DNA of 32,000 nt from Candidatus Saccharimonas sp. (GTDB taxonomy: Bacteria > Patescibacteriota > Saccharimonadia > Saccharimonadales > Saccharimonadaceae). The position numbers were made by a program, and so were the translations under genes. The notes beneath the pieces were generated by a model. It worked only from the letters and a program-made list of their open reading frames with translations. It did no database searches and was not told the origin of the DNA. The stretch spans positions 360,001 to 392,000 of the forward strand of contig CP076101.2 in NCBI GenBank assembly GCA_015256915.3, written 5' to 3'. Below are positions 3,919-16,737 of the stretch, piece after piece. The number at the start of each line of letters is the position of its first letter. Within the stretch, counting starts at the first letter, position 1.

Positions 3919-4929
3919 CTATTTTCGAAAGATTTTGCTCAAAATTGTGCGTAAAAAATAACGTTTGCGATATTCACCAGCATATTCAATCGCCACACCG
4001 CGAAAACCAGCCTTAAAACGCAACAAGCTTGCCTTTGGTTCTGCCGTAATGCCATAAAAATTATATTTCGAAGCTCCCGCACGAATTGCTTCTTTAATCA
4101 TATAATCTTGCAAAAATGTTGAAGCTGGAATTTTGCGATATTCTTGGAGAGTTCCACCCTCAAAATAAACAACTTCATTTTTCGAAAAGATAAACACGCC
4201 AGCAGAAATTAGTTTTCCTTCAAATTCCACACCCATAAAACGCGCTCGCTCACCAAAACAAGTTTTTAAATTATGATAATATTTCTCATCACGCGTGCCA
4301 ACACCGTTTTTTTGGTTTGAACTCTTTAAAATCGCCACAAAATCAGTAAATTCACCCTCTTCAATCTTACGAACATTCACGCTTTTTTTTATTGCCGCGC
4401 GCAAATTTCGGCGTGTAGTTTGGTTATAAGTTGAAGCCACACTATCTTCGCTTAGCCCTGTTAGATCTTTCAAATAAACATGCATGTTTACATCCATATC
4501 AAACTCGTGTTTAAAGCCAGAATAATATTTAAAACCAGCTTTTAGTAGCGGTTTATTCAACCAATCAAGATTATTGCTTTCAATAATTTCAAGCTTATCA
4601 TTACGAAGTGCACGCACCATTTTTGGCAAAATCCGGTAAGAAATCGCTCCATGCTCGCGTGCAAATTCTTCACTCTTAACCAAAAAATCCATAAAATCTG
4701 CTTGCGAAACGCCATTTTGCTCAACCATCACCAAATCGAAACGCTTATTTTTGTTAGAAATCAACCCAGCAACTTCAATATTTTCATCATTTTTTAACGC
4801 CACAAAATAGTATTCTGCGCCGCGCTTCTTGCGCATTTCGGCAAATTCTACACTTTGTAACCAGTCAATGTTTTTATCTTGGCAATAGTTTTGATATTCT
4901 TCTTTTGAAATCTCTACAAGGCTTTTCAT
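3919..4929 (-). CDS. FemAB-family peptidoglycan interpeptide-bridge aminoacyltransferase
   Basis: 336-aa ORF. The C-terminal half matches the FemAB pattern: ...YNQTTRRNLRAAIKKSV...GKLISAGVFIF...VYFEGGT...YNFYGI...LLRFKAGFRG... Confidence 0.75.
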   Translation of the reverse strand: MKSLVEISKEEYQNYCQDKNIDWLQSVEFAEMRKKRGAEYYFVALKNDENIEVAGLISNKNKRFDLVMVEQNGVSQADFMDFLVKSEEFAREHGAISYRILPKMVRALRNDKLEIIESNNLDWLNKPLLKAGFKYYSGFKHEFDMDVNMHVYLKDLTGLSEDSVASTYNQTTRRNLRAAIKKSVNVRKIEEGEFTDFVAILKSSNQKNGVGTRDEKYYHNLKTCFGERARFMGVEFEGKLISAGVFIFSKNEVVYFEGGTLQEYRKIPASTFLQDYMIKEAIRAGASKYNFYGITAEPKASLLRFKAGFRGVAIEYAGEYRKRYFLRTILSKIFRK

Positions 4930-5028
4930 ATATCCTCTATTTTAACACAAAAAAACCAAATTTAAAACCAGACCGATAGCTGTTTTTACTATTCAAAGCT
5001 GGTTTTAAATTTTTTACTTTAGCTAATT

Positions 5029-5466
5029 TTAAGCACCCGCAGGTTTGTTTTCGGTTGGTTTTGGCTCAGTAGTTTTGGCTTTTTCAACCTTTTCAAAGTG
5101 TGCTGATTTTAGTTTATCTTTTAAGGCGTCACCCGCCACAAAACGAACTTTCACACCTTCAATCGAGCTTGCTGTTACACCAGATTCTTTAGCTTGACCT
5201 TTAGATTGAATAGTTGTATGAAAATAACCAAGTTTCCCAAGATGAACACTTTCGCCTCGCTCTAATCGTTTCAAAAGCTCATCTGTTAGTGCTAGCAAAA
5301 CTGCATGCACATCAATATGACTCACCGTAGTTGAGGTTTCTGAAATACTATTAGCGATTTCATCTAGATCAACACGGCCAGATTCAGCTAGTTGAGCGTA
5401 AAACTTTTTTGGCTCTTCTCGTTTTGCAGGGTTTACAAGTTGAACAACTTTATATTTAAGACTCAT
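5029..5466 (-). CDS. HU-like (HU-HIG type) DNA-binding protein
   Basis: 145-aa ORF with a GGAGGA SD. MSLKYKVVQLVNP...FYAQL..SGRVDLDEIA..IS..ST....DV.AVL.AL...L...L..G..V.LG.LG.F resembles the long Bacteroidetes-type HU family. Confidence 0.6.
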   Translation of the reverse strand: MSLKYKVVQLVNPAKREEPKKFYAQLAESGRVDLDEIANSISETSTTVSHIDVHAVLLALTDELLKRLERGESVHLGKLGYFHTTIQSKGQAKESGVTASSIEGVKVRFVAGDALKDKLKSAHFEKVEKAKTTEPKPTENKPAGA

Positions 5467-5497
5467 TCTTCCTCCTTGAAAGGCTTTTGATTTGTTT

Positions 5498-5681
5498 TGC
5501 TATAGCAGTTAATTAAAAATGCTATAGATGATTCTTAAATGTGCTTAGCAAATTTTAAAAAGTGATGTAGCACTTTTGTTGGTTTGCTATAGGGGATTAA
5601 AGATTCCTCCTTTCACCTTACCAAAATCACCAAGTTATTCAATTAAAAGTGCTTGATTTCCTGCTTTAATTATAGCACTTT
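5498..5681. repeat. Cluster of short repeated words in a 265-nt non-coding spacer
   Basis: TGCTATAG occurs at 5498 (as the perfect palindrome TGCTATAGCA, 5498..5507), 5520 and 5585. A 7/8 inverted copy lies at 5670..5677. An 8-bp inverted repeat AAAGTGCT (5646..5653) / AGCACTTT (5674..5681) brackets a TGcTATAAT-like minus-strand -10. A further AGCACTTTT is at 5569..5577. Confidence 0.7.
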
Positions 5682-5731
5682 GAACGGGTTAAGGGCAAGC
5701 GGGATTTACGGTTTCATCATAAAAATTATAG

Positions 5732-7993
5732 TTACTTATTTACTTTTATACATAATTGCCAATGAGTATTAAAATGATCTATGGCACTATTATCATTAAA
5801 ACACTTTTCTAGTATATTCTTAATATCCTCATTGTTCTTACCTGATATGTCAGTTGTTAAATCAAGAATACTACTATGAGAGTTTGCATTAAAAAGTCTC
5901 TTTGCATCCTTATTTTCCTTATAAAAATCTTTTTTGTTAGTAAAAGATATATAATCCTCTATGATACGCCGTGCCACGTTACACATCAATTCAGGCTTAT
6001 CCATTTTGTATAAGAATCCTAGTTCAAACCAAAGAGATTCATATTGATTTTTAAAATCCTCCTTATCTTTTTGTATTTTTTGTATTTTGGTTTTACCTCC
6101 ATAGGACATAAGCTTATAAAAATTGAATTCTTCATAAGGGTTTATAACACTGCCATCACTCTTTAATTTTCGGCGACATTCATTTTTTATGTCACGAGTA
6201 ATATTTAAATAAAATAATACATTATGTGTTAAGATAAGAATCTTATCTTCTTTTTTAGATTTATTAACCTGCTTAACTAGATCCAGCATCTCGTCAACAA
6301 TTAAGTATTGCATTGTATCATCATTTGAATTCATTGGGTCATCAAATACAATAAATTTGGGTTTATTAGAATTATTTTCTGAATCATCTAGACTTTCAAT
6401 AAAATAAAGAAGCGCAACGATATTTTTTTCACCAGTAGATAGTTCCTGAACTGGTCGAGTTTTTTCTTCACCTTCTATTTTTTCCTTAATTTCATAAAAT
6501 TCTCGACCCTGTTCATCTTTACGTTCAAGCGTAAAATTAGTATATTTTTCTAACTTTTTATTAATATTCTTAGCTAGTATTTCTGTATTTTTAGTTTTTG
6601 ATAATTGTTCATTAATTTTTTCTTGCTTTTCCTTTTGCTCTTTCTCATAATCTTCAATATCATCTTTTACTACTTGGATCTCTTCTTCTTTACCATCTAG
6701 ATCACTAATAGCGCTACTAAGCTCTGTCTTAATTTCTTCTATATTTGAATTCCTAATAATTTCTGCAATAGCATTATAGCGAAGCTTTTTTCTAGCTTTA
6801 GTTTTGTTATCTTTTAGGTTTTTAGTGTATTCGTTGTTTTCTTCAACTATTCCGTTATATTCTTCAATCTCTCCGACCAGTTTAGAAGGTAGTTTTTCTG
6901 ATTCATATGATATAGTATCGAATAAATTCTTTTGTTTTTCCTCTAAAGAGTCTTTAAGTTTTTTCAAGAAGTTCTGCTGTTCAAGTTTATTTTTATCTAC
7001 CTTTAGCAAAATCTCACTAATCGAGTTCTTAAACTCTGGATAAAAAACTTCTTCCTTTATAATGATTTTTTCTAATTTATTTTCATAGTTTTTAATTTCA
7101 ATCAACTTATCGCTAAGCTCTTTAGTGAATTTATCAATTTCACTACCAGAAAAATATTTTTCAAGTTTCTGAAGTCGCTCGTTGGTAACTATATTGCCAC
7201 AAAAAGCACAAGTGTCACCAGCACTATGGCAGTCTTTACCAGCTTCAGCAAATTGGCGTTTTTTATTATCATCGTCTAATTCTGCAATTTTTATGCTTGG
7301 TTGAACTGTTTTTAACAATAGGTTTTCAACATCCTCTTGTAAAACTGCAAAATCGATCTCATCTAAAGAGATTTTTTCTACTTCTGGTTTTGGGGTTGAT
7401 TCTATAGTTTCTTTCAATGTTGCTATCTCTTCATCAGATAGAATAGGACTCTTAAGCGCATCTTCAATTTCACCCTGAAAAGAATTCTTATCGTAACCTG
7501 TTGCCTTCTCAACAATTACAGGGTCTTTCATATTAGCAATTTTGCTTGCACTATTGGAATAGAATTTTTGTTCCTTCTTTTCTTTCTTTTGTTTTTCCTC
7601 TTCTAGTTTAAGCTTTTGTGTATATAAGTTTTCGCTTTCATCTTGCGGTTTGACAATTTTAGCCCTTTCAGCATCTATTTTGCCTTGAATGTCGGCAATC
7701 TCGCTCTCATATTCTTTAATAATCTTATCTATTTTTGTATTTTCTTCGCCAAGAACAATAGCATTTAATTTTTGATCATCACTAATAACAGATTCAAACC
7801 CTTGAAAAATATAAGCATCATATCCGTGCTCACCATTACTATTTTGGCTCCTTATTAAATCACAAATGGATGATTTGCCTGTACCATTCTTACCAAAAAC
7901 AAAATTAACCGACTTATCAAAATTAATCGACTCATCTTCAAATCTACTAAATTTATCATTGCCCGAATCTGTATCTTTTAAATCTACTTTCAT
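5732..7993 (-). CDS. rloC: RloC/PrrC-family ABC ATPase with a coiled-coil/zinc-hook insert and a C-terminal anticodon-nuclease-like domain
   Basis: ATPase motifs: Walker A GKNGTGKSS (7868..7894), signature LSTGEK, Walker B IVFDDP, H-loop LTHN. A long heptad-rich insert has a Cx7CxxC apex (CAFC at 7199..7210). The C-terminus carries ARRIIED (5954..5971) followed 27 aa later by NSH (His codon 5876..5878), which fits the Arg/Glu/His ACNase triad pattern. The preferred start is the ATG at 7993, 4 nt after the upstream stop and preceded by GGAG. The track start at 8035 is a TTG inside the upstream gene. Confidence 0.75.
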   Translation of the reverse strand: MKVDLKDTDSGNDKFSRFEDESINFDKSVNFVFGKNGTGKSSICDLIRSQNSNGEHGYDAYIFQGFESVISDDQKLNAIVLGEENTKIDKIIKEYESEIADIQGKIDAERAKIVKPQDESENLYTQKLKLEEEKQKKEKKEQKFYSNSASKIANMKDPVIVEKATGYDKNSFQGEIEDALKSPILSDEEIATLKETIESTPKPEVEKISLDEIDFAVLQEDVENLLLKTVQPSIKIAELDDDNKKRQFAEAGKDCHSAGDTCAFCGNIVTNERLQKLEKYFSGSEIDKFTKELSDKLIEIKNYENKLEKIIIKEEVFYPEFKNSISEILLKVDKNKLEQQNFLKKLKDSLEEKQKNLFDTISYESEKLPSKLVGEIEEYNGIVEENNEYTKNLKDNKTKARKKLRYNAIAEIIRNSNIEEIKTELSSAISDLDGKEEEIQVVKDDIEDYEKEQKEKQEKINEQLSKTKNTEILAKNINKKLEKYTNFTLERKDEQGREFYEIKEKIEGEEKTRPVQELSTGEKNIVALLYFIESLDDSENNSNKPKFIVFDDPMNSNDDTMQYLIVDEMLDLVKQVNKSKKEDKILILTHNVLFYLNITRDIKNECRRKLKSDGSVINPYEEFNFYKLMSYGGKTKIQKIQKDKEDFKNQYESLWFELGFLYKMDKPELMCNVARRIIEDYISFTNKKDFYKENKDAKRLFNANSHSSILDLTTDISGKNNEDIKNILEKCFNDNSAIDHFNTHWQLCIKVNK

Positions 7994-7997
7994 GTTT

Positions 7998-10900
7998 CTA
8001 TTCCATCTCCCTAACTTTTTCTTCAATGAACGCAATTTCTTTTTCGCTCAAACCGTATTTTTTATAAAGTTGCTGGTCGATTTGAGCAATTGATTGCGAC
8101 CAGTCAATGTCAGAGTTGTTGGTAAAGTTTTGAAGAGGGACGTTACGCCAAGTATCTTTCTTATTGCTTTGCGTGATTTTTAGGGTGCCAAGCATTGTGC
8201 GCGCGAATTTAGTTTTTATGTATTTGAGCAAGTTTTCAGCCTCTTCACGGTTGTCAAAAGCTCCAAAACTTATAAATGTTTGCGTATGCCCGACAAGGGG
8301 TTCCCCGACAAGGGGTTCCCCGACAAGGGGTGTAGAGAGAACTTCGCCTATAGCGCCACTTCCATTGCTTCCAGGCAGCATAACTTTAAATTTTCGAAGA
8401 TTTGGATGCTCTTCGATATATTCAGAATTGATATATCGCCACTTGCGCTTATTTTTTATAACGCCAATAAACTTAAAACTATTTTCAAACTTCTTATTTT
8501 CGGTGAAGATATTATCCAAACTAGTTAGAACGGAGCTTGCAACAGTCTTTTCATGCCCTTTCGAAAGCTTCTCTTTTGCTTCAGGAAAATCTTGATGCAT
8601 TTTTTGAGAGAACTTATAACTATCGGTAGAATAATATAAAGAATCAAGAAAATCACTATTTTTATTTTTTTCAAGAACTTTATGCAAAGCAGAATTAAGC
8701 TCTTCAAAATGTGTAAATGTGCCAATTTTACCAAAGTTCTTCTTGGTGTCACGATAAGTTATAGCTACACCACCTTTAATATCAGTATTCGGGAAGACGT
8801 TACTTGAATCTTGCTCATAATAAGCCACCTTTAAATGTTTATCATTTAGCATTTTGGCGTTCCATTTTTTGGGTGTTTTACCAGCATTAAACAAGAATCT
8901 CGCAGGCGTAATAAAGCACACTTTATCTGCAAACTTATAAGCTTCACTCATAAAATAGTTATAAATTGGCTTATCACTAGTGTCTTTAGTTTCCTCCTGA
9001 TACGGCGGATTTCCAATCACAACATCAAATTTCATATTTAGCGGCTCTCCTTTCTTGAACTGCTCGGTTAAATCTTTCTTTTTTAAGTTCTGGCGAGAGA
9101 TTTCAGGGAATCCGCCATAAATATAGTTGGCTGCAATATCATAAACGATCTGGGTTGGCGCAAAACCAAAGAGCTGGTTTTCAAAAATATGCTTTAATCT
9201 TGCCTGCTCATCTGGAATTATATTTGCTAAACCATGGTTGAGCCTTTTGGCGGTTTCGGTTAGGAACAATCCACTTTTAATATGTAAATCACAAAAAGTA
9301 AGGTTCGGGTTAGAGAAAATCCCTGGGTTTTCAGCTTCGAGTATGTTAAGCATTTTGTTTACAACTTCGCGCGGCGTAAAAATTTGATTGCTTTTTTGCG
9401 CTGGAATGTAGCTAAAAATATCTTCTTTTGTTGTATTGTTCAAATAATCAGCAAGCCGTTCGCGTTTCTTTTCGAACTCTTGAATTGCCGCATTAAAGCG
9501 ATGTTTTTCAAAAAAGCCATCGAAGTGAATAATTTCGCCGTTTTCTTCATAATCACCACCATCACGTAGTTCGATAAAATCAGCTTTCGTAAATCGATCT
9601 GGTGCATGGAGCTTGTCACGTTCATTGAATAGCATTTCAAAATCTTCATCACTCACCGCATCTTGTAGATTATCTATAGTAAGGTTCCTAGGATCTTTTG
9701 CCGCCATCACAAAGCTTGGGATTGCTCGTGAGAATGTTCGGAGCTTTTCACGAATAATATCAAGCTCGGTTTTAGCATTATCTTGATAAGCTTGCTCTTC
9801 ACGATTATCAATCATATCGCGGGGTAGTTCTTTTTCAACAAAATCTGCAAGCTCAGCAATTGCCTTAGTTTTTTCTTTTTCTGTTTGAGGCGAATTTTTA
9901 AATTCTTCACTCACAGTTTTGATTTTCTCTACAATTTTTTCTTCAAGTTCTTTGATTTCCTTCTTACTTGGAGCATAAACTTCAACATATTTAGCAATAG
10001 GTTTGCTCAAAATATCTTCGTTAATTGCATCTGTTAATTGCTCCTCAAAGCTATCCATATCTTCTTGCGCACGCTCAAAAGCCTCACGAATTGGCTCGCC
10101 ATAAACCTTTTGTCCCCAAATAATATCGCGATTAACAGAAATTCTTTTTTGTTTTTGTTCATCTCGCTCACGATTATTGGAAATATCACGTTTTTCTTTT
10201 TTATTTGCCGTGCCATCTTCTTTCGAATTTTGCACTTTATTAAGTTTTTTAACGATTTCACTTGGAAGATTAAAAACATTACCAATATCTTTAAATAGTA
10301 AGTTAGTGATAAACCTACGCTTAACAATATCGCTTGCCATTTTAGCTGCGGGCAAAGTTAATACTTGCGAAGCGTCAAGCTCCACCATTTTACCATTTTC
10401 GTCTTGCGAAAGAACTGGAAAGAAATTGAGAAGTTCTGCCACATTTTCTTGCCGCTCACTTTCTGTAATATTACCAATTGCGCTTTTTTCACTTAAAGAA
10501 TTTGCGAGTTTATCATAAATCTCAAGCACACGATAAGGTGAAAAGTCAAAAACATAAGCCGACTTTTTACGATAAAGTTTGCCGTCTTTTTCATATTTAT
10601 ATGGGTTTTGTGCACGGAATATCGCCTGCGTGTAAAGAGTTTCTTTTTTCACATCACTCATCATTAGTACCGCCGACCATTCTTTAACCGTTACGCCCGT
10701 TGTAAGCTGACCAACCGAAAGTGTAATGGTTTTGTCATATTCTTCTATCGCCTTCCTTACGCGCGCTAAAGCTTTTTCATTCTTTTTAAAATCTTCAGCC
10801 TCCTCTTCAAAGTCTTCATTGTCCAAACTTCGGCCATCGCCGGCTGCTAAAATAATTTTATAATTTTCAAAAACTGGGTGTTTTTTAAGCAGCTTTTCCA

Positions 10901-12236
10901 TTGCTTTTGCTGAATTTACGCGATTTCCTACAAACCAAAAAGTATGCTTTAGCTCATTGCGAAGTTCTGGAGTTGAAAACGGATAACCTTCATTCTCGGT
11001 AAGAGTATTTAAAAATCGCCAAATATCAGCTTCACGCTTAAATTCACCCTTTGAATTGGTTGCCAAAAAATCGTTAAATTCAAAAACTGGTGGAATATTG
11101 TCCCCATTTACATCAATACCTTCTTCGATCTGCTTAGCTGTAACATCTGAAATTTTATAATTAAACAACCTTAAATCCGGCATATCTGTGTGATCGCCCG
11201 ATTCTTGACCATTCTTGAGCTCACTCTGTTTTGTTTTTTGCTCATCGAGATAAGTCCAGTTATAAATTTGTTCACTACTAAACTTACCTTCTGCCAAGGC
11301 TTTAAATGGCGTTCCTGAAAGATGAAGCGTAAATTTGCGTTTAATATTTTCAAAAGCCCTGTCCGTTTTATCAGTATCAACTGCTTCATGGGCTTCATCA
11401 ATCACTAATAAATCCCACTCTAGGTCTGCAACCCACTGCAATTTGTCAAAGCTTCCACCAAAAACTTTTGCACCTTTTAAATCTTGCAAACTCAAAAAAG
11501 TTATTTGTTTTTTACCGAAACCTTCAATTTGATTAAACTCTTCACGAGTTAAGGTTTTCTCTTTAATAGAGTCCGCTGTTGAGATAAAATGATAACCGTC
11601 AATAAATTTCTTATAGTCATTATACCAAGAATCGGCAATTGCTGGACGGTTAGTTACGATTAGAGTTTTTGTTGCTCCAAAGCGTTTCATAAAATCATAA
11701 GTTGTTAACGTTTTGCCGAAACGCGGTTTAGCATTCCATAAGAATTCAGCTTTTTCATTTGGATTTTTAAAATCAGTAGTTTGATTACGTTCAGCATATT
11801 CTAAGGTTTGCTCGACTGCATCTTCTTGCTCTGGTCGTAAAATATAGAATTTCTTGCCATTACTATCTACAAAACGGTCTTGACAAAAAGCTTCAAAAAG
11901 TTCTATCGACCTCTCTGGCGTACCATTAAAATAAAACCATTCAGTTCCATGACCTTTATCTTTCGGAATTGCATTTTGCTGATAATAGCGATGAAGCTCA
12001 TGGTCTTTGAACCATTTATTATTATTTTTTCTTGCAGGTCTAATCCATTTTATATCATAGGGTTCTTTATGTGAAGCGGTCTCGTTTTGTTCACGAATTC
12101 GAATTTTAGCATCTTTTCGCTCAGTATAGCCAATTTTTTGCCAGCCATCATTTTGGTGTCTATCTGGCAAAATATATGAATAAATTTGTGGATAAACTTT
12201 TTTAAATGTTTTGATCTGTTTTTTATCATCACTCAT
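7998..12236 (-). CDS. Single-polypeptide enzyme resembling Type ISP restriction-modification enzymes: T5orf172/GIY-YIG-like head, SF2 translocase, N6-adenine methyltransferase (NPPY), C-terminal target-recognition tail
   Basis: 1412 aa. N-terminus: IYSYIL..GWQKIGYTER..IRIREQN...GTEWFYF (KIGYT at 12123..12137). Helicase motifs: PRFGKT (11709..11726), DEAH (11388..11399), LSGTPF, QAIFRAQNP. Methyltransferase: IFTPREVVNKML, DLHIKSGLFL, VVIGNPPYQEE (NPPY at 9000..9011). The C-terminal tail ends ...HTQTFISFGAF..EEAENLLKYIKTKFARTML...DWS...LYKKYGLSEKEIAFIE, as in Eco57I/TaqI_C-type enzymes. Confidence 0.75.
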   Translation of the reverse strand: MSDDKKQIKTFKKVYPQIYSYILPDRHQNDGWQKIGYTERKDAKIRIREQNETASHKEPYDIKWIRPARKNNNKWFKDHELHRYYQQNAIPKDKGHGTEWFYFNGTPERSIELFEAFCQDRFVDSNGKKFYILRPEQEDAVEQTLEYAERNQTTDFKNPNEKAEFLWNAKPRFGKTLTTYDFMKRFGATKTLIVTNRPAIADSWYNDYKKFIDGYHFISTADSIKEKTLTREEFNQIEGFGKKQITFLSLQDLKGAKVFGGSFDKLQWVADLEWDLLVIDEAHEAVDTDKTDRAFENIKRKFTLHLSGTPFKALAEGKFSSEQIYNWTYLDEQKTKQSELKNGQESGDHTDMPDLRLFNYKISDVTAKQIEEGIDVNGDNIPPVFEFNDFLATNSKGEFKREADIWRFLNTLTENEGYPFSTPELRNELKHTFWFVGNRVNSAKAMEKLLKKHPVFENYKIILAAGDGRSLDNEDFEEEAEDFKKNEKALARVRKAIEEYDKTITLSVGQLTTGVTVKEWSAVLMMSDVKKETLYTQAIFRAQNPYKYEKDGKLYRKKSAYVFDFSPYRVLEIYDKLANSLSEKSAIGNITESERQENVAELLNFFPVLSQDENGKMVELDASQVLTLPAAKMASDIVKRRFITNLLFKDIGNVFNLPSEIVKKLNKVQNSKEDGTANKKEKRDISNNRERDEQKQKRISVNRDIIWGQKVYGEPIREAFERAQEDMDSFEEQLTDAINEDILSKPIAKYVEVYAPSKKEIKELEEKIVEKIKTVSEEFKNSPQTEKEKTKAIAELADFVEKELPRDMIDNREEQAYQDNAKTELDIIREKLRTFSRAIPSFVMAAKDPRNLTIDNLQDAVSDEDFEMLFNERDKLHAPDRFTKADFIELRDGGDYEENGEIIHFDGFFEKHRFNAAIQEFEKKRERLADYLNNTTKEDIFSYIPAQKSNQIFTPREVVNKMLNILEAENPGIFSNPNLTFCDLHIKSGLFLTETAKRLNHGLANIIPDEQARLKHIFENQLFGFAPTQIVYDIAANYIYGGFPEISRQNLKKKDLTEQFKKGEPLNMKFDVVIGNPPYQEETKDTSDKPIYNYFMSEAYKFADKVCFITPARFLFNAGKTPKKWNAKMLNDKHLKVAYYEQDSSNVFPNTDIKGGVAITYRDTKKNFGKIGTFTHFEELNSALHKVLEKNKNSDFLDSLYYSTDSYKFSQKMHQDFPEAKEKLSKGHEKTVASSVLTSLDNIFTENKKFENSFKFIGVIKNKRKWRYINSEYIEEHPNLRKFKVMLPGSNGSGAIGEVLSTPLVGEPLVGEPLVGHTQTFISFGAFDNREEAENLLKYIKTKFARTMLGTLKITQSNKKDTWRNVPLQNFTNNSDIDWSQSIAQIDQQLYKKYGLSEKEIAFIEEKVREME
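8289..8331 (-). repeat. 15-bp in-frame tandem repeat (2.9 copies) encoding (PLVGE)n inside the target-recognition tail
   Basis: Plus-strand unit cccgacaaggggttc at 8289..8303 and 8304..8318, plus a 13-nt partial copy at 8319..8331, all identical. It translates as PLVGEPLVGEPLVG. It is markedly GC-rich and uses GGG/CCC/GTC codons within an AT-rich gene. Confidence 0.95.
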
Positions 12237-12250
12237 CTTAAACTCTCCGA

Positions 12251-13129
12251 TTAATCTTTCTTATTTGCTACTTTTAGCCGTGTTTTCTTAGGTGTAAGTT
12301 TTGACGGCGATGCTCGCATCTGACTCATTACATCTGTTAAGTTTTCAAGGTTTGCAGATTTTATTTTCGAATAAGCTTTTTCAATATCTTGAAGTGAATG
12401 TTCTGAAATTTCGAAAGTCAAATCTTCAAAATTAGGCTTTAGATCGAAGAATTTAAGCTCATTTTTCTGCGTTAAAGTATTGCCAACAATAATATTATTA
12501 CTTAGAATTTTATCAATTGTTTCAAGAAAAAAGAACGAGTTTTTGATATTTTTAATATGCTTATAAATGATTTCTTTTAGGCGTTCACGTGATTCTTCAA
12601 CATTATCCTCTTGAATATCCACCGCATAAACATTTGATATTGCCAAAATTAAACAAAATTCATAAATCTCAACCTGAGCCTTTTTGCTTCTAGCATTCTT
12701 TTGCTTTTTTATTTTCGTATAAAAATCCGGAACCGAATTAAGTTTTCGGTTCAAAATTTCTACAAGAAAATTACCATTTCCACAAGTCGGCTCAAAGACT
12801 TTTTTATCTACTTGAGAAATTGTTGGCTCACATAAATCACACATCTGTTTAACAATGAACTCGGGCGTAAAAACTTCACCAAACTTCTTAACGCGCTTTT
12901 TTGACTTAATTAGATTCTCTTTTTGCTTTTGATTATTTTTAATGGCAGTTTTAGAAGTAGGGCTCATTTTTCTTTTACTAGATTCTTTTAGATTCTTAGT
13001 TGAAATTTTAGATTTTTTAGGATTCAAAGATTTTTGCTCTATTAAGCCGCCACCAAGTGAACCCTTATTGCTCGCAAGGTATTTTTTATTATCTTTTGTT
13101 TTATCCTCCGCATTCTCAGCTCTAGCCAT
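12251..13129 (-). CDS. Truncated N6-adenine-methyltransferase-like protein (motifs X, I, II present; motif IV NPPY replaced by NTLT) with lysine-rich tails
   Basis: 292 aa with FGEVFTPEFIV (motif X), FEPTCGNGNFLVEIL (motif I, 12767..12793) and YAVDIQ (motif II). IIVGNTLT (GNTL at 12473..12484) sits where xxxGNPPY is expected. Only ~75 aa follow, so motifs V-VIII and a TRD are missing. The N-terminal ~85 aa and the C-terminal tail are K/S-rich (SPTSK, SPSK, TPKK). Confidence 0.65.
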   Translation of the reverse strand: MARAENAEDKTKDNKKYLASNKGSLGGGLIEQKSLNPKKSKISTKNLKESSKRKMSPTSKTAIKNNQKQKENLIKSKKRVKKFGEVFTPEFIVKQMCDLCEPTISQVDKKVFEPTCGNGNFLVEILNRKLNSVPDFYTKIKKQKNARSKKAQVEIYEFCLILAISNVYAVDIQEDNVEESRERLKEIIYKHIKNIKNSFFFLETIDKILSNNIIVGNTLTQKNELKFFDLKPNFEDLTFEISEHSLQDIEKAYSKIKSANLENLTDVMSQMRASPSKLTPKKTRLKVANKKD

Positions 13130-13138
13130 AATAATTAT

Positions 13139-13167
13139 ATTTTACCAAATTTATCTATTTTTTGCAA
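13139..13167 (-). promoter_or_regulatory. sigma70-type promoter of the three-gene defence operon
   Basis: On the minus strand: TTGCAA (13162..13167), 17 nt, TAAAAT (13139..13144). Only 9 nt separate the -10 from the ATG at 13129, and there is no SD. Confidence 0.55.
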
Positions 13168-13170
13168 AAC

Positions 13171-13196
13171 AAAAACCACCTCCCGAAAGAGGTAGT
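13171..13196 (-). terminator. Rho-independent terminator of fusA
   Basis: Minus-strand RNA ACUACCUC-UUUCGG-GAGGUGGU forms 8 bp including one G.U pair, followed by UUUUUGUUUUG. Confidence 0.7.
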
Positions 13197-13215: not shown

Positions 13216-15306
13216 TTATTTAGCGTTTCGCTTTTCGATAATTTCTTGTGCAACGTTAGGTGGAACTTCTTCGTATTGCGCAAGCTCCATTGTTGAAGCT
13301 GCACGACCTTTACTCATTGAGCGTAGGTCTGAAGTGTAGCCAAACATATTTGCAAGAGGCACAAAACCTTTAACGAGCTTTGTTCCGCCCATCAAATCCT
13401 CCATAGCGTCGATTCGACCGCGGCGTGAGTTCAAGTCTCCGATTACATCACCCATGAATTCTTCAGGAGTTGTAATTTCAACTTTCATCACAGGTTCAAG
13501 AAGAACTGGGTTTGCTTTCTTGATACCTTCACGAGTTGAAAGTGCACCAGCCAATTTAAAGGCCAATTCGCTCGAGTCGACATCGTGGTAAGAACCATCG
13601 TAAAGTGTAGCTTTAACGTCAACTACTGGGTAGCCAGCAATCACACCGCCTTCAAGCGTTTCAAGCACACCTTGTTCAACTGGTTTGCGGTATTCTTGTG
13701 GCACAACACCACCTTTAATTTCATCAAAGAATTCAAAGCCTTTTCCTGGCTCATTTGGCTCAAAACGAATCCAAACATCACCATATTGACCACGACCACC
13801 AGATTGTTTTGCGTGTTTACCTTGAGCTTCAGCAGTTCCACGAATAGTTTCACGGAAGGCAACTTGTGGCTCACCAACATTAGCTTCAACGTTAAATTCA
13901 CGCTTCATTCGGTCGATCAAGATGTCAAGGTGAAGCTCACCCATTCCTGACATAATTGTTTGACCAGTTTCTTCATCTGTGTGAACTCGGAAAGTTGGGT
14001 CTTCTTCAGCAAGTCGTTGAAGAGCAATTCCCATTTTTTCTTGGTCGGCTTTAGTTTTTGGCTCAACCGCAATCGAAACTGGAGGTTCAGCGAACTCAAT
14101 ACCTTCAAGAATTACACCGTGGTTCAAATCACAAAGAGTTGCACCAGTTGTAACATCTTTCAAACCAACAACAGCGGCAATGTCACCAGCAGCAACTTCT
14201 GAAATTTCTTCACGCTTATCAGCATGCATTCGAACGATTCGTCCGATTCGCTCTTTTTTACCAGTCATTGTATTGAGAACATATGATCCAGCAGTAATTT
14301 TACCACTATAAACACGCACGAATACGAGTTTTCCAACAAATGGGTCGGTTGCAATCTTAAATGCAAGTGCAGAAGTTGGTTCATCTACAGACGGTTTACG
14401 CTCAATAGCTTCACCAGTTTTTGCGTCAGTTCCTTTAATCGAAGAAACATCAAGTGGGCTTGGAAGGTAATCATTAATCAAGTCAAGAACTTTTTCAACA
14501 ATCACACCACGGCCATCACCACCAGTTACTAAGAAGAAGTCACCAGCAAGAACTCGTTTTCGAAGCGCAGCTTTAAGTTCAGGAATTGTAATTGATTCCT
14601 CACCTTCTTCGAAGAATCGCATCATCAATTCATCATCAGCTTCAACCGCATTTTCAACAAGCAATGAGCGTGCGTTTTTAGCTTTTTCAAGCATATCTGC
14701 TGGAATTTCACCAACTTTCAACTCATGGTCAGCGTAGTTATCATAAGTGTAAGCTTTCATGTCAATAAGGTCGACAACACCATTAATTTCTTGTTCGAAA
14801 CCAATTGGCAAGTGAATTGGGAAAGCTTGTTTGCTTAGACGGTCATGAATTGATTTAATAGATTTATAGAAGTCACCACCAGTTTGGTTAATTTTGTTGA
14901 TAAAACAAACACGTGGCACGCCATATTTGTCGGCTTGTCGCCAAACAGTTTCAGACTGAGCCTCCACACCCATTTTACCGTCAAAAACAGTCACGGCACC
15001 GTCAAGAACACGAAGTGAACGCTCCACTTCAGCAGTAAAGTCGATGTGTCCTGGGGTGTCGATAATGTTAATTTTGTGATCTTTCCAGAAACAAGTCACA
15101 GCAGCAGAAGTAATTGTAATACCTCGCTCTTTCTCTTGAGCCATCCAGTCGGTTGTTGCACCATCACCTTCACCACGAACAACACCGATTTTGTGTGTCA
15201 AACCAGTTCGGTAAAGAATACCTTCTGTTGTTGTAGTTTTACCGGCATCAATGTGCGCAATAATACCAACATTTCGGAAATTTTCCAATGGAGTATTTTT
15301 ATTCAT
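13216..15306 (-). CDS. fusA: Elongation factor G
   Basis: 696 aa with [25 protein letters not shown], and full-length EF-G domain III-V motifs. An AAGAGGAA SD precedes the start. Confidence 0.97.
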
Positions 15307-15398
15307 TTGATTCCTCTTAAATTTATTATTTTATTGCTGTTTCACGCTAGTTTTGTTGTTTTTTTCGAAACCAGCACAAAAACAGCGCTTCGCTAACA

Positions 15399-15427
15399 AT
15401 TTTATCATATTTTTTAAAATCTGTAAA
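15399..15427 (-). promoter_or_regulatory. sigma70-type promoter of fusA (about 90-nt leader)
   Basis: On the minus strand: TTTACA (15422..15427), 17 nt, TAAAAT (15399..15404). Confidence 0.6.
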
Positions 15428-15440
15428 GTAAAAATAGCCA

Positions 15441-15466
15441 AAAGAAAAAGCCAGATTTTTCTGACT
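15441..15466 (-). terminator. Rho-independent terminator of the small membrane-protein gene
   Basis: Minus-strand RNA AGUCAGA-AAAA-UCUGGCU forms 7 bp including one G.U pair, followed by UUUUCUUU. Confidence 0.55.
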
Positions 15467-15480
15467 CTATCAGTTAATAG

Positions 15481-15696
15481 CTATCTTTTTAAACAAGCAT
15501 TAACTCGAACAGGAACAGTATTTTTTGGTTTAAAAACTTTTGGAAGCAAAAAGAGCGAAAGCCAAAAAAATCCAAACATAAATATTCCAAAATTCCAACT
15601 TGTCAAATAGGTTAAATAACAAGATAGACTAAAGACTGTAGTAAAGTACAAGAACACGAATAATGGTTCCTTTGCTTCTCTGAATGCTTTTTTCAT
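15481..15696 (-). CDS. Small hydrophobic (2-TM) protein, 71 aa
   Basis: The ORF has its own consensus promoter and terminator. A GGAGG SD (15708..15712) lies 11 nt before the ATG at 15696. The track start at 15714 is a TTG that contains that SD. Confidence 0.55.
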   Translation of the reverse strand: MKKAFREAKEPLFVFLYFTTVFSLSCYLTYLTSWNFGIFMFGFFWLSLFLLPKVFKPKNTVPVRVNACLKR

Positions 15697-15747
15697 AAGG
15701 ATAATTTCCTCCAAATGTTCTATTTTCCACTTTTGAGCGGAATTTCT

Positions 15748-15776
15748 ATTTTATCACAACTTTCGAAGAAAGTCAA
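15748..15776 (-). promoter_or_regulatory. sigma70-type promoter of the small membrane-protein gene
   Basis: On the minus strand: TTGACT (15771..15776), 17 nt, TGaTAAAAT with the -10 at 15748..15753. Confidence 0.6.
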
Positions 15777-15784
15777 TAATGGGA

Positions 15785-16201
15785 TTAAAGCTTCTCCCCG
15801 TTTCTTGCGCGATTCGCCCATTCATCAGCCATTTCATTAAACTCATGACCAGCGTGCCCTTTTAGCCATTTTAGCTCTACATTCGATTTTTTATAAAGCT
15901 CAAAAAGCGGCTTCACAATATCAAGATTCTTAATTTCACCATTTTTCTTCTTCCAGAAATTTTTCTCCCAAGCTGGCGCCCATTTTATTAAAACATTAAC
16001 CCAAAACTCACTATCTGTTAAAATTTCAGCTTCTTCACCATCTAAAATTTCGAAAGCTTTTTTCAAAGCTAATCCTTCCATTCGAATATTCGTGCTTGCA
16101 TTTTCAGCTCCCAAAGCAATCGGTTTTCCGTTTTCAATCACGGCAAAACCACCAGGGCCAGGATTCGGTGAAGCACTTCCGTCCGTAAAAATCGTTCGCA
16201 T
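15785..16201 (-). CDS. rnhA: Ribonuclease HI
   Basis: 138 aa with FTDGSASPNPGPGG, RMEGLAL, LTDSEF and GHAGHEFNEMADEWA, so the DEDD/H catalytic set is present. Its ATG overlaps the upstream stop as TAATG at 16199..16203. Confidence 0.88.
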   Translation of the reverse strand: MRTIFTDGSASPNPGPGGFAVIENGKPIALGAENASTNIRMEGLALKKAFEILDGEEAEILTDSEFWVNVLIKWAPAWEKNFWKKKNGEIKNLDIVKPLFELYKKSNVELKWLKGHAGHEFNEMADEWANRARNGEKL

Positions 16202-16737
16202 TACTTATTTTCCTGATTATTTTGCGGAATAAAATTCTGTACAAAGGCTGAAGTACTTGCTTGATTTTGCATCTTTTTAGCTTTTTTCATTCTTTCGAAA
16301 GAAATCATTGCTAAAACCGCACTAAGAATTCCAACAATCAGCAGTCCACTCGGAGCAACTATTTTAGTAATTTCAAAATCACCCTCAACGGCAGAGTTTG
16401 GGTCTTTTTCATCATAAAAAACTTTCACTTTTTCGCCTCTAACCGGTTCTTCATTCTTTAGCTCTGAATGAAGTTCAATTGTTTCGTTCTCTTTCACTGA
16501 AAAATCTATAACCGCAGAATATCTATATTCACCGGTTTTTTCATTTATAATCTTCTTTTCGAAACCATAAATTTGCCCTTCAGTTTGTTTCCAAGTTTGT
16601 CTTTTTAGAAAATCATTAAAAGGTTTTGCAATCCAAATTGATCCAGCAACAATTAAAATAATCGATAAAATTGCAAAAATAATTCCACGATTTCGAAAAG
16701 CTTTTACGCCAACTTTTTTAGCTTCATTAGAACTCAT
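16201..16737 (-). CDS. DUF3592-like membrane protein (TM, beta-rich domain, TM)
   Basis: 178 aa. An N-terminal TM is followed by TWKQTEGQIYG...YRYSAVIDFSV...GEKVKVFYDEKDPNSAV and a C-terminal TM. Confidence 0.6.
   Translation of the reverse strand: MSSNEAKKVGVKAFRNRGIIFAILSIILIVAGSIWIAKPFNDFLKRQTWKQTEGQIYGFEKKIINEKTGEYRYSAVIDFSVKENETIELHSELKNEEPVRGEKVKVFYDEKDPNSAVEGDFEITKIVAPSGLLIVGILSAVLAMISFERMKKAKKMQNQASTSAFVQNFIPQNNQENK

Follow-up and report, generated by a model that had tools for sequence, protein, structure and literature searches.

Introduction

Type ISP restriction–modification enzymes, exemplified by LlaGI and LlaBIII, carry in one chain an Mrr/PD-(D/E)xK nuclease, a superfamily 2 (SF2) translocase, a linker, a gamma-class N6-adenine methylase with an NPPY motif, and a C-terminal specificity region. 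A comparable domain order is found in ORF2, the central product of a three-gene locus (open reading frames ORF1, ORF2, and ORF3) at positions 5732–13167 of a 32,000-nt stretch of an oral Saccharibacteria (TM7) genome (assembly GCA_015256915.3, contig CP076101.2, positions 360,001–392,000, forward strand). This whole stretch is referred to as the window, and its numbering is used below; near-identical contigs are labelled Candidatus Saccharimonas or Nanogingivalis. Other described systems also bear on ORF2. In Type III (Mod/Res) systems, the Mod-type methylase has an internal specificity region and the nuclease is a C-terminal PD-(D/E)xK domain. The DnmA-YeeB-YeeC systems of Bacillus subtilis and Vibrio crassostreae combine an MmeI-like N6-adenine methylase of ~900 aa with an SF2 helicase and a T5orf172 nuclease, both encoded separately. 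T5orf172 domains are proven nucleases in other contexts (PMC8263062), and are among the listed nuclease domains of N6-adenine restriction–modification systems (PMC4738411).

With respect to ORF3, the relevant systems are anticodon nucleases. PrrC, a protein of ~400 aa without a coiled-coil or zinc-hook insert, is invariably encoded in Type Ic hsd loci, where it is held latent inside the EcoprrI restriction–modification operon as a second line of defence; its triad consists of R320, E324, and H356 (PMC2610378). RloC, described from Geobacillus kaustophilus and Acinetobacter baylyi, is defined by ATP-binding cassette (ABC) motifs, by a coiled-coil insert bearing a CxxC zinc hook, and by an Arg-X3-Glu-X36-52-His arrangement in which Ser often precedes the His (PMC2610378). 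It is further marked by a HEPN-type nuclease domain and by a tRNase activity that excises the wobble nucleotide. Linkage of RloC/PrrC-like (ABC-HEPN) genes to restriction–modification has been known before (PMC2610378, PMC3710099).

The locus is read here, with a probability of roughly 60%, as a two-part defence operon in which ORF1 and ORF2 would form an ATP-dependent restriction–modification-like cassette, and ORF3 would be an accessory RloC-like protein. The original prediction, made from the sequence of the window, had proposed a two-layer immune module with restriction as the first layer and tRNA-cleaving abortive infection as the second; its domain calls and two-layer theme have stood, whereas ORF3 is not a core component and the conserved unit is ORF1 plus ORF2. 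The locus would be a new variant of a known two-layer theme rather than a categorically new system, with the ORF1–ORF2 family being the more interesting object. Since the locus takes up ~7.4 kb of a very small genome, it is relevant to the phage pressure that these episymbionts face and to the barriers that hinder their genetic manipulation.

The conserved ORF1–ORF2 cassette

Three co-directional genes lie on the minus strand between the EF-G gene (13216–15306) and a HU-family gene (5029–5466), with gaps of 14 nt between ORF1 and ORF2 and of 4 nt between ORF2 and ORF3, just as originally predicted:

12251–13129, minus strand: ORF1 (A subunit), 292 aa
7998–12236, minus strand: ORF2 (C::B fusion), 1412 aa
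5732–7993, minus strand: ORF3 (RloC-like), 753 aa from an ATG; the mechanical ORF begins at a TTG at 8035

When a single genome was scanned for each species, relatives of ORF2 turned up at more than 552 loci, of which 80, from many phyla, were examined (L-numbers, such as L001, L005, and L095, label the homologous loci recovered in this analysis). The cassette is made of three parts, namely A, a half-methylase of ~220 aa; B, a methylase of ~500 aa that equals ORF2 residues 932–1412; and C, a T5orf172-helicase protein of ~840 aa that equals ORF2 residues 14–700 plus the linker. In most of the 80 loci, the content of ORF2 is spread over two genes in the opposite order, B and then C, with an ORF1-like A gene in front. 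The fused C::B form, which together with A makes up the window cassette, occurs also in Firmicutes, Desulfobulbaceae, Victivallales, and others. In a third form, seen in Firmicutes and Actinobacteria (L009–L016 and L019; e.g., L014 9992–13255 plus 13252–14268), the chain is broken exactly before beta-strand 4 and NPPY, and the second protein starts with 'MKFDVIVGNPPYQ'. This second half, of ~340 aa, aligns with the whole length of a 'Type II MTase' model of PADLOC (348 positions).

In loci without a BLAST-detectable ORF1 homologue, the upstream gene was found to encode a divergent A-type protein, A′, with the motifs AEVFTP, LEITCGEAPY, and YGFEWNGDSL. With profile hidden Markov models (HMMs), A or A′ adjoins the ORF2-family gene in 73 of the 74 evaluable genome loci, again across many phyla. 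ORF1, which had been taken for an odd third partner, is therefore the partner that the ORF2 family keeps most faithfully. Judged by gene content, ORF1 and ORF2 make a true conserved pair, in which ORF2 is a gene fusion and ORF1 the signature subunit of the whole family. No published characterization of this family was found, and its annotation is only generic; neither PADLOC v2 nor NCBIfam holds a dedicated system-level model for it.

The family is also present on 92 plasmid records, many of them from enterococci and dairy lactic acid bacteria; Enterococcus accounts for 39 and Lactococcus for 9. Two-gene versions occur on small plasmids, such as p211b-a of E. faecium and the 10-kb pRS5 of Pediococcus, where A′ and the fused enzyme are the sole large cargo. 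The neighbours of the cassette in other genomes include HerA, Gabija, Fic/SoFic, AriA-like ATPases, GmrSD, a TIR effector, and resolvases, with housekeeping genes interspersed. Many loci, from Bacteroidales and other lineages, have extra genes totalling 0.6–1.2 kb inserted between B and C (L028, L036, L043, L045, L053, L056, L058, L059, L070, L074, and L077); from their N-terminal sequences, read by eye and without a profile search, they appear to be HigBA-like toxin–antitoxin pairs, an MNT/HEPN pair, and RhuM-like and Bro-N-like genes. Between motif II and NPPY, stand-alone B methylases (e.g., L037 9989–11491 and L065 9995–11527) contain an insert of ~45 residues that includes conserved cysteines (YCSK ... 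CxFCGA). This insert, which is missing from the fused forms, may be a zinc ribbon.

ORF1, a predicted half-methylase

ORF1 was found to match only the N-terminal third of the Pfam family N6_Mtase (E = 2e-6), with a sub-threshold match to MmeI_Mtase (17.2 bits against a cut-off of 27). It carries the gamma-class N6-adenine methylase motifs X (GEVFTP, residues 84–89), I (FEPTCGNGNF, 112–121), II (YAVDIQEDN, 168–176), and III (IIVGNTLT, 213–220), and motif IV (NPPY or DPPY) is absent from it, in agreement with its earlier description as a truncated methylase-like protein. The same holds for the A family as a whole, which at E ≤ 1e-10 comprises 1160 clusters (50% identity), with members almost always 150–260 aa long: its consensus includes motif X (GEVFT), a canonical motif I (FLEPACGxGNFL), motif II (YGVELLxDN), and motif III (NIxxGDALT), with neither NPPY nor DPPY anywhere. 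Residues 1–72 of ORF1 (window 12914–13129) form a Lys-, Ser-, and Asn-rich extension that has no counterpart in the ~220-aa A proteins of other phyla and is predicted to be disordered.

In sequence comparisons with Protein Data Bank (PDB) chains, ORF1 gave only weak matches to methylase N-termini. Its AlphaFold model (mean predicted local distance difference test score, pLDDT, 78) shows disorder in residues 1–72 and a three-stranded half Rossmann fold plus a hairpin, with the adenine methylase CamA as the best PDB match (probability ~0.99, E = 0.025) and the methylase lobes of LlaBIII and LlaGI lower down the list. Given motifs X and I–III without NPPY, together with the half Rossmann model, ORF1 is therefore taken as a catalytically incomplete half-methylase with a predicted S-adenosylmethionine (SAM) pocket. 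Membership in MADS (MAD2) was considered and rejected, the NCBIfam antiphage_MADS2 score being 32.9 bits against a cut-off of 720.

A terminator-like hairpin with an 8-bp stem and a T-rich tail lies inside the ORF1 coding sequence (12730–12752, minus strand); it is probably a chance occurrence, because the scan gave fewer such sites than shuffled sequence.

Domain anatomy and variation of ORF2

The features of ORF2 are, from its N-terminus:

11925–12182, minus strand: T5orf172/GIY-YIG-like nuclease domain, residues 19–104 (IYSY 18–21, KIGYT 34–38, RIREQ 46–50, TEWF 98–101)
10317–11843, minus strand: SF2 helicase/translocase, residues ~132–640 (motif I PRFGKT 171–176, II DEAH 280–283, III SGTP 307–310, V TGVTV, VI QAIFRAQN)
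9447–10316, minus strand: charged helical linker, residues 641–930 (66 D+E and 52 K+R in 290 aa)
8757–9446, minus strand: gamma-class N6-adenine methylase core, residues 931–1160 (X IFTPREV 952–958, variant I FCDLHIKSGLF 981–991, IV GNPPYQ 1075–1080, with NPPY at 1076–1079)
8397–8756, minus strand: hypervariable block, presumed target-recognition region, residues 1161–1280
8289–8331, minus strand: perfect 15-bp in-frame tandem repeat encoding TPLVG-EPLVG-EPLVG, residues 1302–1316

All of the ORF2 motifs quoted in the original prediction (PRFGKT, DEAH, SGTP, and NPPY) were located at these residues, and so were those of ORF3 listed further below. The families that it had expected were found in part: ResIII (residues 132–311, E = 7e-17) and Eco57I (residues 1050–1148, E = 4e-21) in ORF2, N6_Mtase in ORF1, AAA_13 in ORF3, and, marginally, T5orf172 were matched, whereas neither Helicase_C nor TaqI_C was detected by Pfam in ORF2. 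One close homologue of ORF2 also matches MUG113 at its N-terminus. In PADLOC, ORF2 matched only restriction–modification methylase models (MTase_II and REase_MTase_IIG), over its C-terminal 360 residues, and its sequence gave no match among PDB chains.

The landmarks of the nuclease and helicase are conserved well beyond Saccharibacteria. Across 60 C proteins, the GIY-YIG-type residues IYxY, KxGYT, RxxEQ, and EWF and the helicase motifs I, II (DExH), III, V, and VI are retained, and ORF2 has all of them; its linker corresponds to the C-terminal part of the free-standing C proteins. The 48 B proteins that were compared conserve motif X (EVFTPP), a variant motif I (FLDPxxKSGVFL), GNPPYQ, and a C-terminal tail, LYxKYGLTxEEIxFIE. 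The variant motif I of ORF2 (xKSG, with DL for DP) was considered as a sign of a dead SAM pocket complemented by ORF1. This idea was dropped because the KSG variant is conserved in all B proteins; M.TaqI likewise has a single glycine at this motif I position.

Among 114 homologues 76–100% identical to ORF2, identity exceeds 0.9 over most of the protein and falls to 0.3–0.6 in residues 1161–1280, with flanking blocks at 0.79–0.9; this block is also the only part in which the mosaic ORF2 relatives of L002 and L005 depart from the window protein. Because of this sharp drop and the mosaics, residues 1161–1280 are taken as the target-recognition region, and the variation reads as specificity-domain swapping of the kind expected of a restriction–modification specificity domain. 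The TPLVG/EPLVG repeat is present in one, two, or three copies among homologues of 96–100% identity, giving lengths of 1402, 1407, or 1412 aa. Changes of repeat number in Type I HsdS subunits alter the spacer of the recognition site, and by analogy the number of EPLVG repeats could tune the specificity of ORF2.

Comparison of ORF1–ORF2 with described systems

As noted above, ORF2 resembles Type ISP enzymes in its single chain and in the order of nuclease, SF2 translocase, linker, gamma-class N6-adenine methylase, and C-terminal specificity region, and to this extent its designation as ISP-type in the original prediction was apt. Family membership, however, fails the homology tests. The nuclease is T5orf172/GIY-YIG-like, with no Mrr match in ORF2; neither ISP_coupler nor Type_ISP_C was matched at E ≤ 0.01, although both models did detect a true Type ISP enzyme at L171; among PDB chains, neither LlaGI nor LlaBIII was matched by sequence; and BLAST against the L171 enzyme was not significant. 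The conserved extra subunit, ORF1, and the division of most ORF2-family members into methylase and nuclease-helicase genes are further differences from Type ISP.

The cassette shares with DnmA-YeeB-YeeC an N6-adenine methylase, an SF2 helicase, and a T5orf172 nuclease, and the Fusobacterium version of the latter system is likewise joined to an ORF3-type AAA_13 gene. DnmA-YeeB-YeeC differs in its MmeI-like methylase, in its separate genes and their order, and in having no half-methylase; ORF2 itself has no MmeI-family match in Pfam and is rejected as a member. When ORF2 was compared by pairwise BLAST with the YeeB-like and YeeC-like proteins of Fusobacterium and with the true Type ISP enzyme, no significant similarity emerged; homology to either system is not claimed. 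Split cassettes are also similar to Type III systems in placing the methylase before the helicase-nuclease, in their ResIII-type helicase, and in a target that is probably asymmetric, but their gamma-class methylase has a C-terminal specificity region, their nuclease is N-terminal and GIY-YIG-like, and a half-methylase subunit is present. A comparison with Hma had been recommended. Hma consists of a helicase (HmaA), an m5C methyltransferase (HmaB), and an ATPase (HmaC) (PMC8565338), and it was set aside, since none of the three proteins matched a PADLOC Hma model at E ≤ 0.01 and the methylase here is of the N6-adenine NPPY type. If active, the ORF1–ORF2 family would represent an ATP-dependent restriction class that combines a nuclease of the GIY-YIG type with a half-methylase subunit that is both obligatory and catalytically dead.

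ORF3, an RloC-like protein

ORF3 matches Pfam AAA_13 over its full length (E = 3e-99) and the PADLOC candidate PDC-S06 (PDLC04897; E = 7.9e-218), residues 2–746 aligning with profile positions 4–724 of 727. No difference from PDC-S06, itself only a candidate, was detected over the whole length; no PDB chain was matched by sequence. The Walker A motif, GKNGTGKSS, spans residues 34–42, and the conserved features downstream of it are as follows:

7199–7231, minus strand: putative zinc hook at the insert apex, residues 255–265, CH-x5-C-x2-C (H256 nearly invariant; C262 and C265 invariant)
6221–6439, minus strand: ABC signature (STGEK), Walker B (FDDP), and H-loop (THN), residues 519–591, with invariant residues (LSTGEK 518–523, IVFDDP 548–553, LTHN 588–591)
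5876–5971, minus strand: R675-x3-E679-x26-S705-H706, residues 675–706, matching the triad residues of the PrrC/RloC anticodon nucleases (PMC2610378) (RRIIE 675–679, NSH 704–706)

Invariance was assessed over 38 homologues of 36–95% identity, in which G34–K40, C262, C265, S519/G521/E522, D551/D552, H590, and R675-x3-E679-x26-S705-H706 do not vary. The hook had been described as Cx7CxxC; the actual arrangement is C255-x6-C262-x2-C265, in which only H256, C262, and C265 are conserved in the family. The insert that contains C262-x2-C265 has ~420 residues, rich in E/K/Q/L and poor in proline, and the relative of ORF3 at L006 gave a weak match to Rad50_zn_hook only. In the model of residues 600–753, weak repeated matches were to the HEPN protein AbiV (template modelling score 0.36–0.43, E > 2).

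Compared by published motif definition, ORF3 shares with RloC an ABC head split by a long, putatively helical insert, a conserved CxxC, the residues of a C-terminal Arg-x3-Glu...Ser-His, and occasional linkage to restriction–modification, and the earlier identification as RloC-like holds. ORF3 thus reads as an RloC-like ABC ATPase with a putative zinc-hook insert and a C-terminal Arg-Glu-His region of predicted nuclease function. The likeness to PrrC is one of concept, the activity of ORF3 being predicted. An assignment to PrrC itself is ruled out by the 753-aa size, the long insert, and the absence of hsd genes from the window; unlike PrrC, moreover, ORF3 is attached to another kind of enzyme, and only in some lineages.

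Proposed mode of action and points against it

In the proposed scheme, the hypervariable C-terminal region of ORF2 would read a short asymmetric DNA site, and its NPPY methylase would mark host adenines there. On unmarked DNA, the helicase would translocate and bring the N-terminal GIY-YIG-like nuclease to cut, by analogy with Type ISP and Type III enzymes. ORF1, which keeps the SAM-binding motifs X and I–III and has no catalytic loop, would act as a SAM-binding regulatory or assembly subunit. Where restriction fails, or where DNA damage is sensed, ORF3 would cut tRNA anticodon loops and abort the infection. Domain anatomy, motif conservation, and gene linkage are read directly from the sequences, and from them we infer all of these biochemical activities and any crosstalk between ORF2 and ORF3.

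Several observations weigh against this picture. The T5orf172 match of ORF2 is marginal (E = 6e-4; 20.6 bits against a gathering cut-off of 20), and the most likely role of ORF1, that of a regulatory or assembly subunit of the methylase lobe, is one that we purely infer. DnmA-YeeB-YeeC of B. subtilis, the only system of similar domain set to have been studied, showed no restriction or phage defence (PMC9973331). The Glu-His spacing of ORF3, x26, is shorter than the x31 of PrrC and falls outside the x36-52 of the RloC definition, and the model of its residues 600–753 (pLDDT 79) gave no significant PDB match. ORF2 is interrupted in some metagenome assemblies in which ORF3 is unchanged. With respect to linkage, an ORF3-type AAA_13 gene, sought with a family HMM, is absent from 79 of the 80 ORF2-family genome loci, the single positive being L006, where it lies upstream of A′ and C::B; ORF3 is therefore not a core member. 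The ORF3 slot is variable even in the closest relatives, and most of the ORF3 relatives in metagenome clusters have no ORF2-type neighbour.

Association of ORF3 with the cassette

The linkage data bear above all on two alternatives to the two-part operon. According to the first, ORF3 is a self-contained, single-gene abortive-infection system of the PDC-S06/RloC-like kind that occupies a variable 3′ slot and shares only transcription with its neighbours, a possibility to be taken seriously although it is held at clearly less than even confidence. At the same EF-G/FemAB site that in the window holds the AAA_13 gene, the slot is filled in L005 by an AAA_15/AAA_21 ABC ATPase gene (14224–15645, 473 aa), 3 nt past ORF2, and in L002 by a SMODS/nucleotidyltransferase gene (14246–14842), or by nothing; in the different gene neighbourhood of L001, housekeeping BacA (14439–15278) directly follows the cassette. 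The 3′ end of the operon has the appearance of a variable accessory slot, and natural comparison strains exist with ORF3, with other accessories, or with none. PADLOC treats PDC-S06 as a single-gene candidate, and an Enterococcus relative of ORF3 stands alone near Mrr and TcpE genes. Modification-based systems, moreover, often contain embedded defence genes that share their orientation, and embedding like that seen between B and C is reported for Type I, BREX, DISARM, and Hma systems (bioRxiv 10.1101/2024.01.29.577857).

Complete independence is countered by the distribution of ORF3 relatives. A metagenome scan recovered 80 loci, forming 50 clusters at 80% identity. Four of these clusters directly adjoin A-C::B cassettes, two more adjoin MmeI-like methylases (one of the two, from Fusobacterium, with the complete set of methylase, helicase, and T5orf172), and about a third have modification-system genes next door, above the expectation for random placement. 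In Fusobacterium (L099/L100, 8001–16067), an ORF3 relative of ~38% identity lies 17 nt upstream of genes for an MmeI-like methylase, a ResIII helicase, and a T5orf172/MUG113 protein, and DnmA-YeeB-YeeC-type neighbourhoods were seen also in L129, L131, L137, L139, L143, and L148. The AAA_13 family thus seems to have joined a second, unrelated methylase-helicase-T5orf172 architecture in Fusobacterium. Other immediate neighbours include HsdM, HsdS, HsdR, N6_N4 methylases, PglZ, and BrxL. Because its relatives stand beside MmeI-like clusters, Type I, BREX, or Type ISP systems, or alone, the ORF3 family is regarded as a promiscuous, restriction-linked accessory, which matches earlier descriptions of RloC/PrrC-like genes and the origin of PADLOC's PDC candidates.

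At L171, a 1572-aa true Type ISP enzyme (4138–8856) is encoded 114 nt upstream of an ORF3 relative (8971–11166); among the neighbouring proteins, a single sequence, presumed to be this enzyme, was matched by Type_ISP_C and ISP_coupler. The pairing of an RloC-like protein with a Type ISP enzyme that had been imagined for the window thus exists at L171 and not in the window.

The second alternative is a guard arrangement, in which ORF3 would be bound and kept latent by ORF2 and set free when a phage anti-restriction factor inhibits ORF2, as PrrC is from EcoprrI (PMC2610378). This is possible but rather unlikely. In its favour, besides the PrrC precedent, are the 4-nt gap between ORF2 and ORF3, apparently co-transcribed genes, and a tight association within one branch of the family. 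Every ORF3 relative of 53–100% identity for which context was seen lies right behind an A-C::B cassette; at ~43% identity, those of L105/L106 do so and that of Enterococcus does not. The A-C::B-ORF3 order, with gaps of 4–45 nt, is found in the window, L095, L104, and L105/L106, and so recurs in three divergent lineages (ORF3 relatives 42–55% identical) at two chromosomal sites, since in L095 the cassette and ORF3 relative sit between pheS and pheT rather than after EF-G. In L106, A is 45%, C::B 50%, and the AAA_13 protein 42% identical to the window proteins, with a 6-nt gap before the last. One ORF3 subclade therefore appears to have a repeated, operon-tight attachment to the cassette, which adds one more type of partner for an anticodon nuclease backing up restriction. 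The co-occurrence of all three genes in other genomes, originally proposed as a check, was accordingly found for the ORF1–ORF2 pair and, in these three lineages, for the full order, but not across the wider set of ORF2-family loci.

Against a guard arrangement stand that near-complete absence of ORF3, the unrelated genes in its slot in L005 and L002, and the pairing of its relatives with at least five kinds of modification system or with none, which argues against a specific protein–protein fit. RloC, in addition, is reported to regulate itself and to be set off by DNA breaks (PMC3874168, PMC3710099). Strains with a broken ORF2 also retain an identical ORF3. The breaks comprise a nonsense change that cuts off the nuclease domain in L081 (5773–9996), a +1 frameshift in an A5 run at codon 1340 in L087 (1368–5607), and others in L091 and L093 (3953–7998). 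These copies could be real pseudogenes or assembly errors; a check for systematic phase variation behind them turned up no more than a single nonsense change, a frameshift in an A-run, and a scaffold gap. Whether such strains fit a guard or an independent ORF3 hangs on what the ORF2 fragment still does. The original prediction knew of no described system of this exact composition; links between RloC/PrrC-like proteins and restriction were already published, however, and the family of ORF3 was already in PADLOC.

Other readings of the cassette

An improbable reading is that ORF1–ORF2 is not an active restriction system, but an orphan or epigenetic methylase whose helicase-nuclease is a relic or has been repurposed, as has been proposed for DnmA-YeeB-YeeC. 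The B. subtilis result cited above and the broken ORF2 of L081 and L087 are in line with it. The conservation of nuclease and helicase motifs across phyla, the hypervariable specificity region, and carriage on plasmids and in defence islands speak for active restriction instead, and Vibrio homologues of DnmA-YeeB do affect phage sensitivity (cited in PMC9973331).

A more speculative extension, doubtful at best, concerns the splitting of the methylase. Because the chain in Firmicutes and Actinobacteria is broken exactly before beta-strand 4 and NPPY, each such locus encodes two N-halves, namely A and the one attached to the helicase-nuclease, and one catalytic C-half. The A family might then supply an alternative SAM-binding N-half for a naturally splittable methylase, such that exchange of N-halves, or docking of A, would switch the enzyme between modification-only and restriction-competent states, with ORF3 monitoring the enzyme in the Saccharibacteria subclade. 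If true, this would be a control principle not described for restriction–modification enzymes.

That ORF2 is a DarB-like anti-restriction methylase-helicase of a mobile element, the refuting case raised in the original prediction, is very improbable, since, although methylase and helicase share one chain and homologues occur on plasmids, a tblastn search of 50,697 phage records gave no DarB-like match (10 records matched, one covering at least 80% of ORF2, and none was P1-like), ORF2 is chromosomal in many strains, and it has an N-terminal nuclease-like domain and an apparently swapping specificity region.

Genomic setting and upstream signals

The cassette lies on the chromosome in many strains, between EF-G and HU/FemAB. 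At 0.335, the three genes are lower in G+C content than the window as a whole (0.368). Searches of the window for tRNA genes and Rfam families gave no hits, so that no linked tRNA or RNA component is proposed. Two candidate signals precede ORF1:

13178–13193, minus strand: short G+C hairpin plus T-run just past the EF-G stop codon (sequence reading; palindrome in the plus-strand scan)
13167–13139, minus strand: sigma-70-like promoter candidate before ORF1 (TTGCAA, 17-nt spacer, TG-TAAAAT; 9/12 matches; consensus match only)

Both the EF-G (fusA) terminator and the promoter had been predicted and are present as sequence features. The hairpin is likely the EF-G terminator, and the promoter is only a consensus match in an AT-rich region that holds 41 promoter-like sites, as compared with 27 expected from shuffles. 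Because the region exceeds shuffles in such sites everywhere, the promoter and terminator scans carry little weight.

In the region 13216–16737 of the window, the EF-G gene is preceded by genes for RNase H and a 178-aa protein of unknown family, rather than by rpsL and rpsG. In related contigs, the EF-Tu gene is located ~13 kb downstream of EF-G, and the defence cassette, HU, FemAB, and a cysteine-desulfurase-like gene lie between the two.

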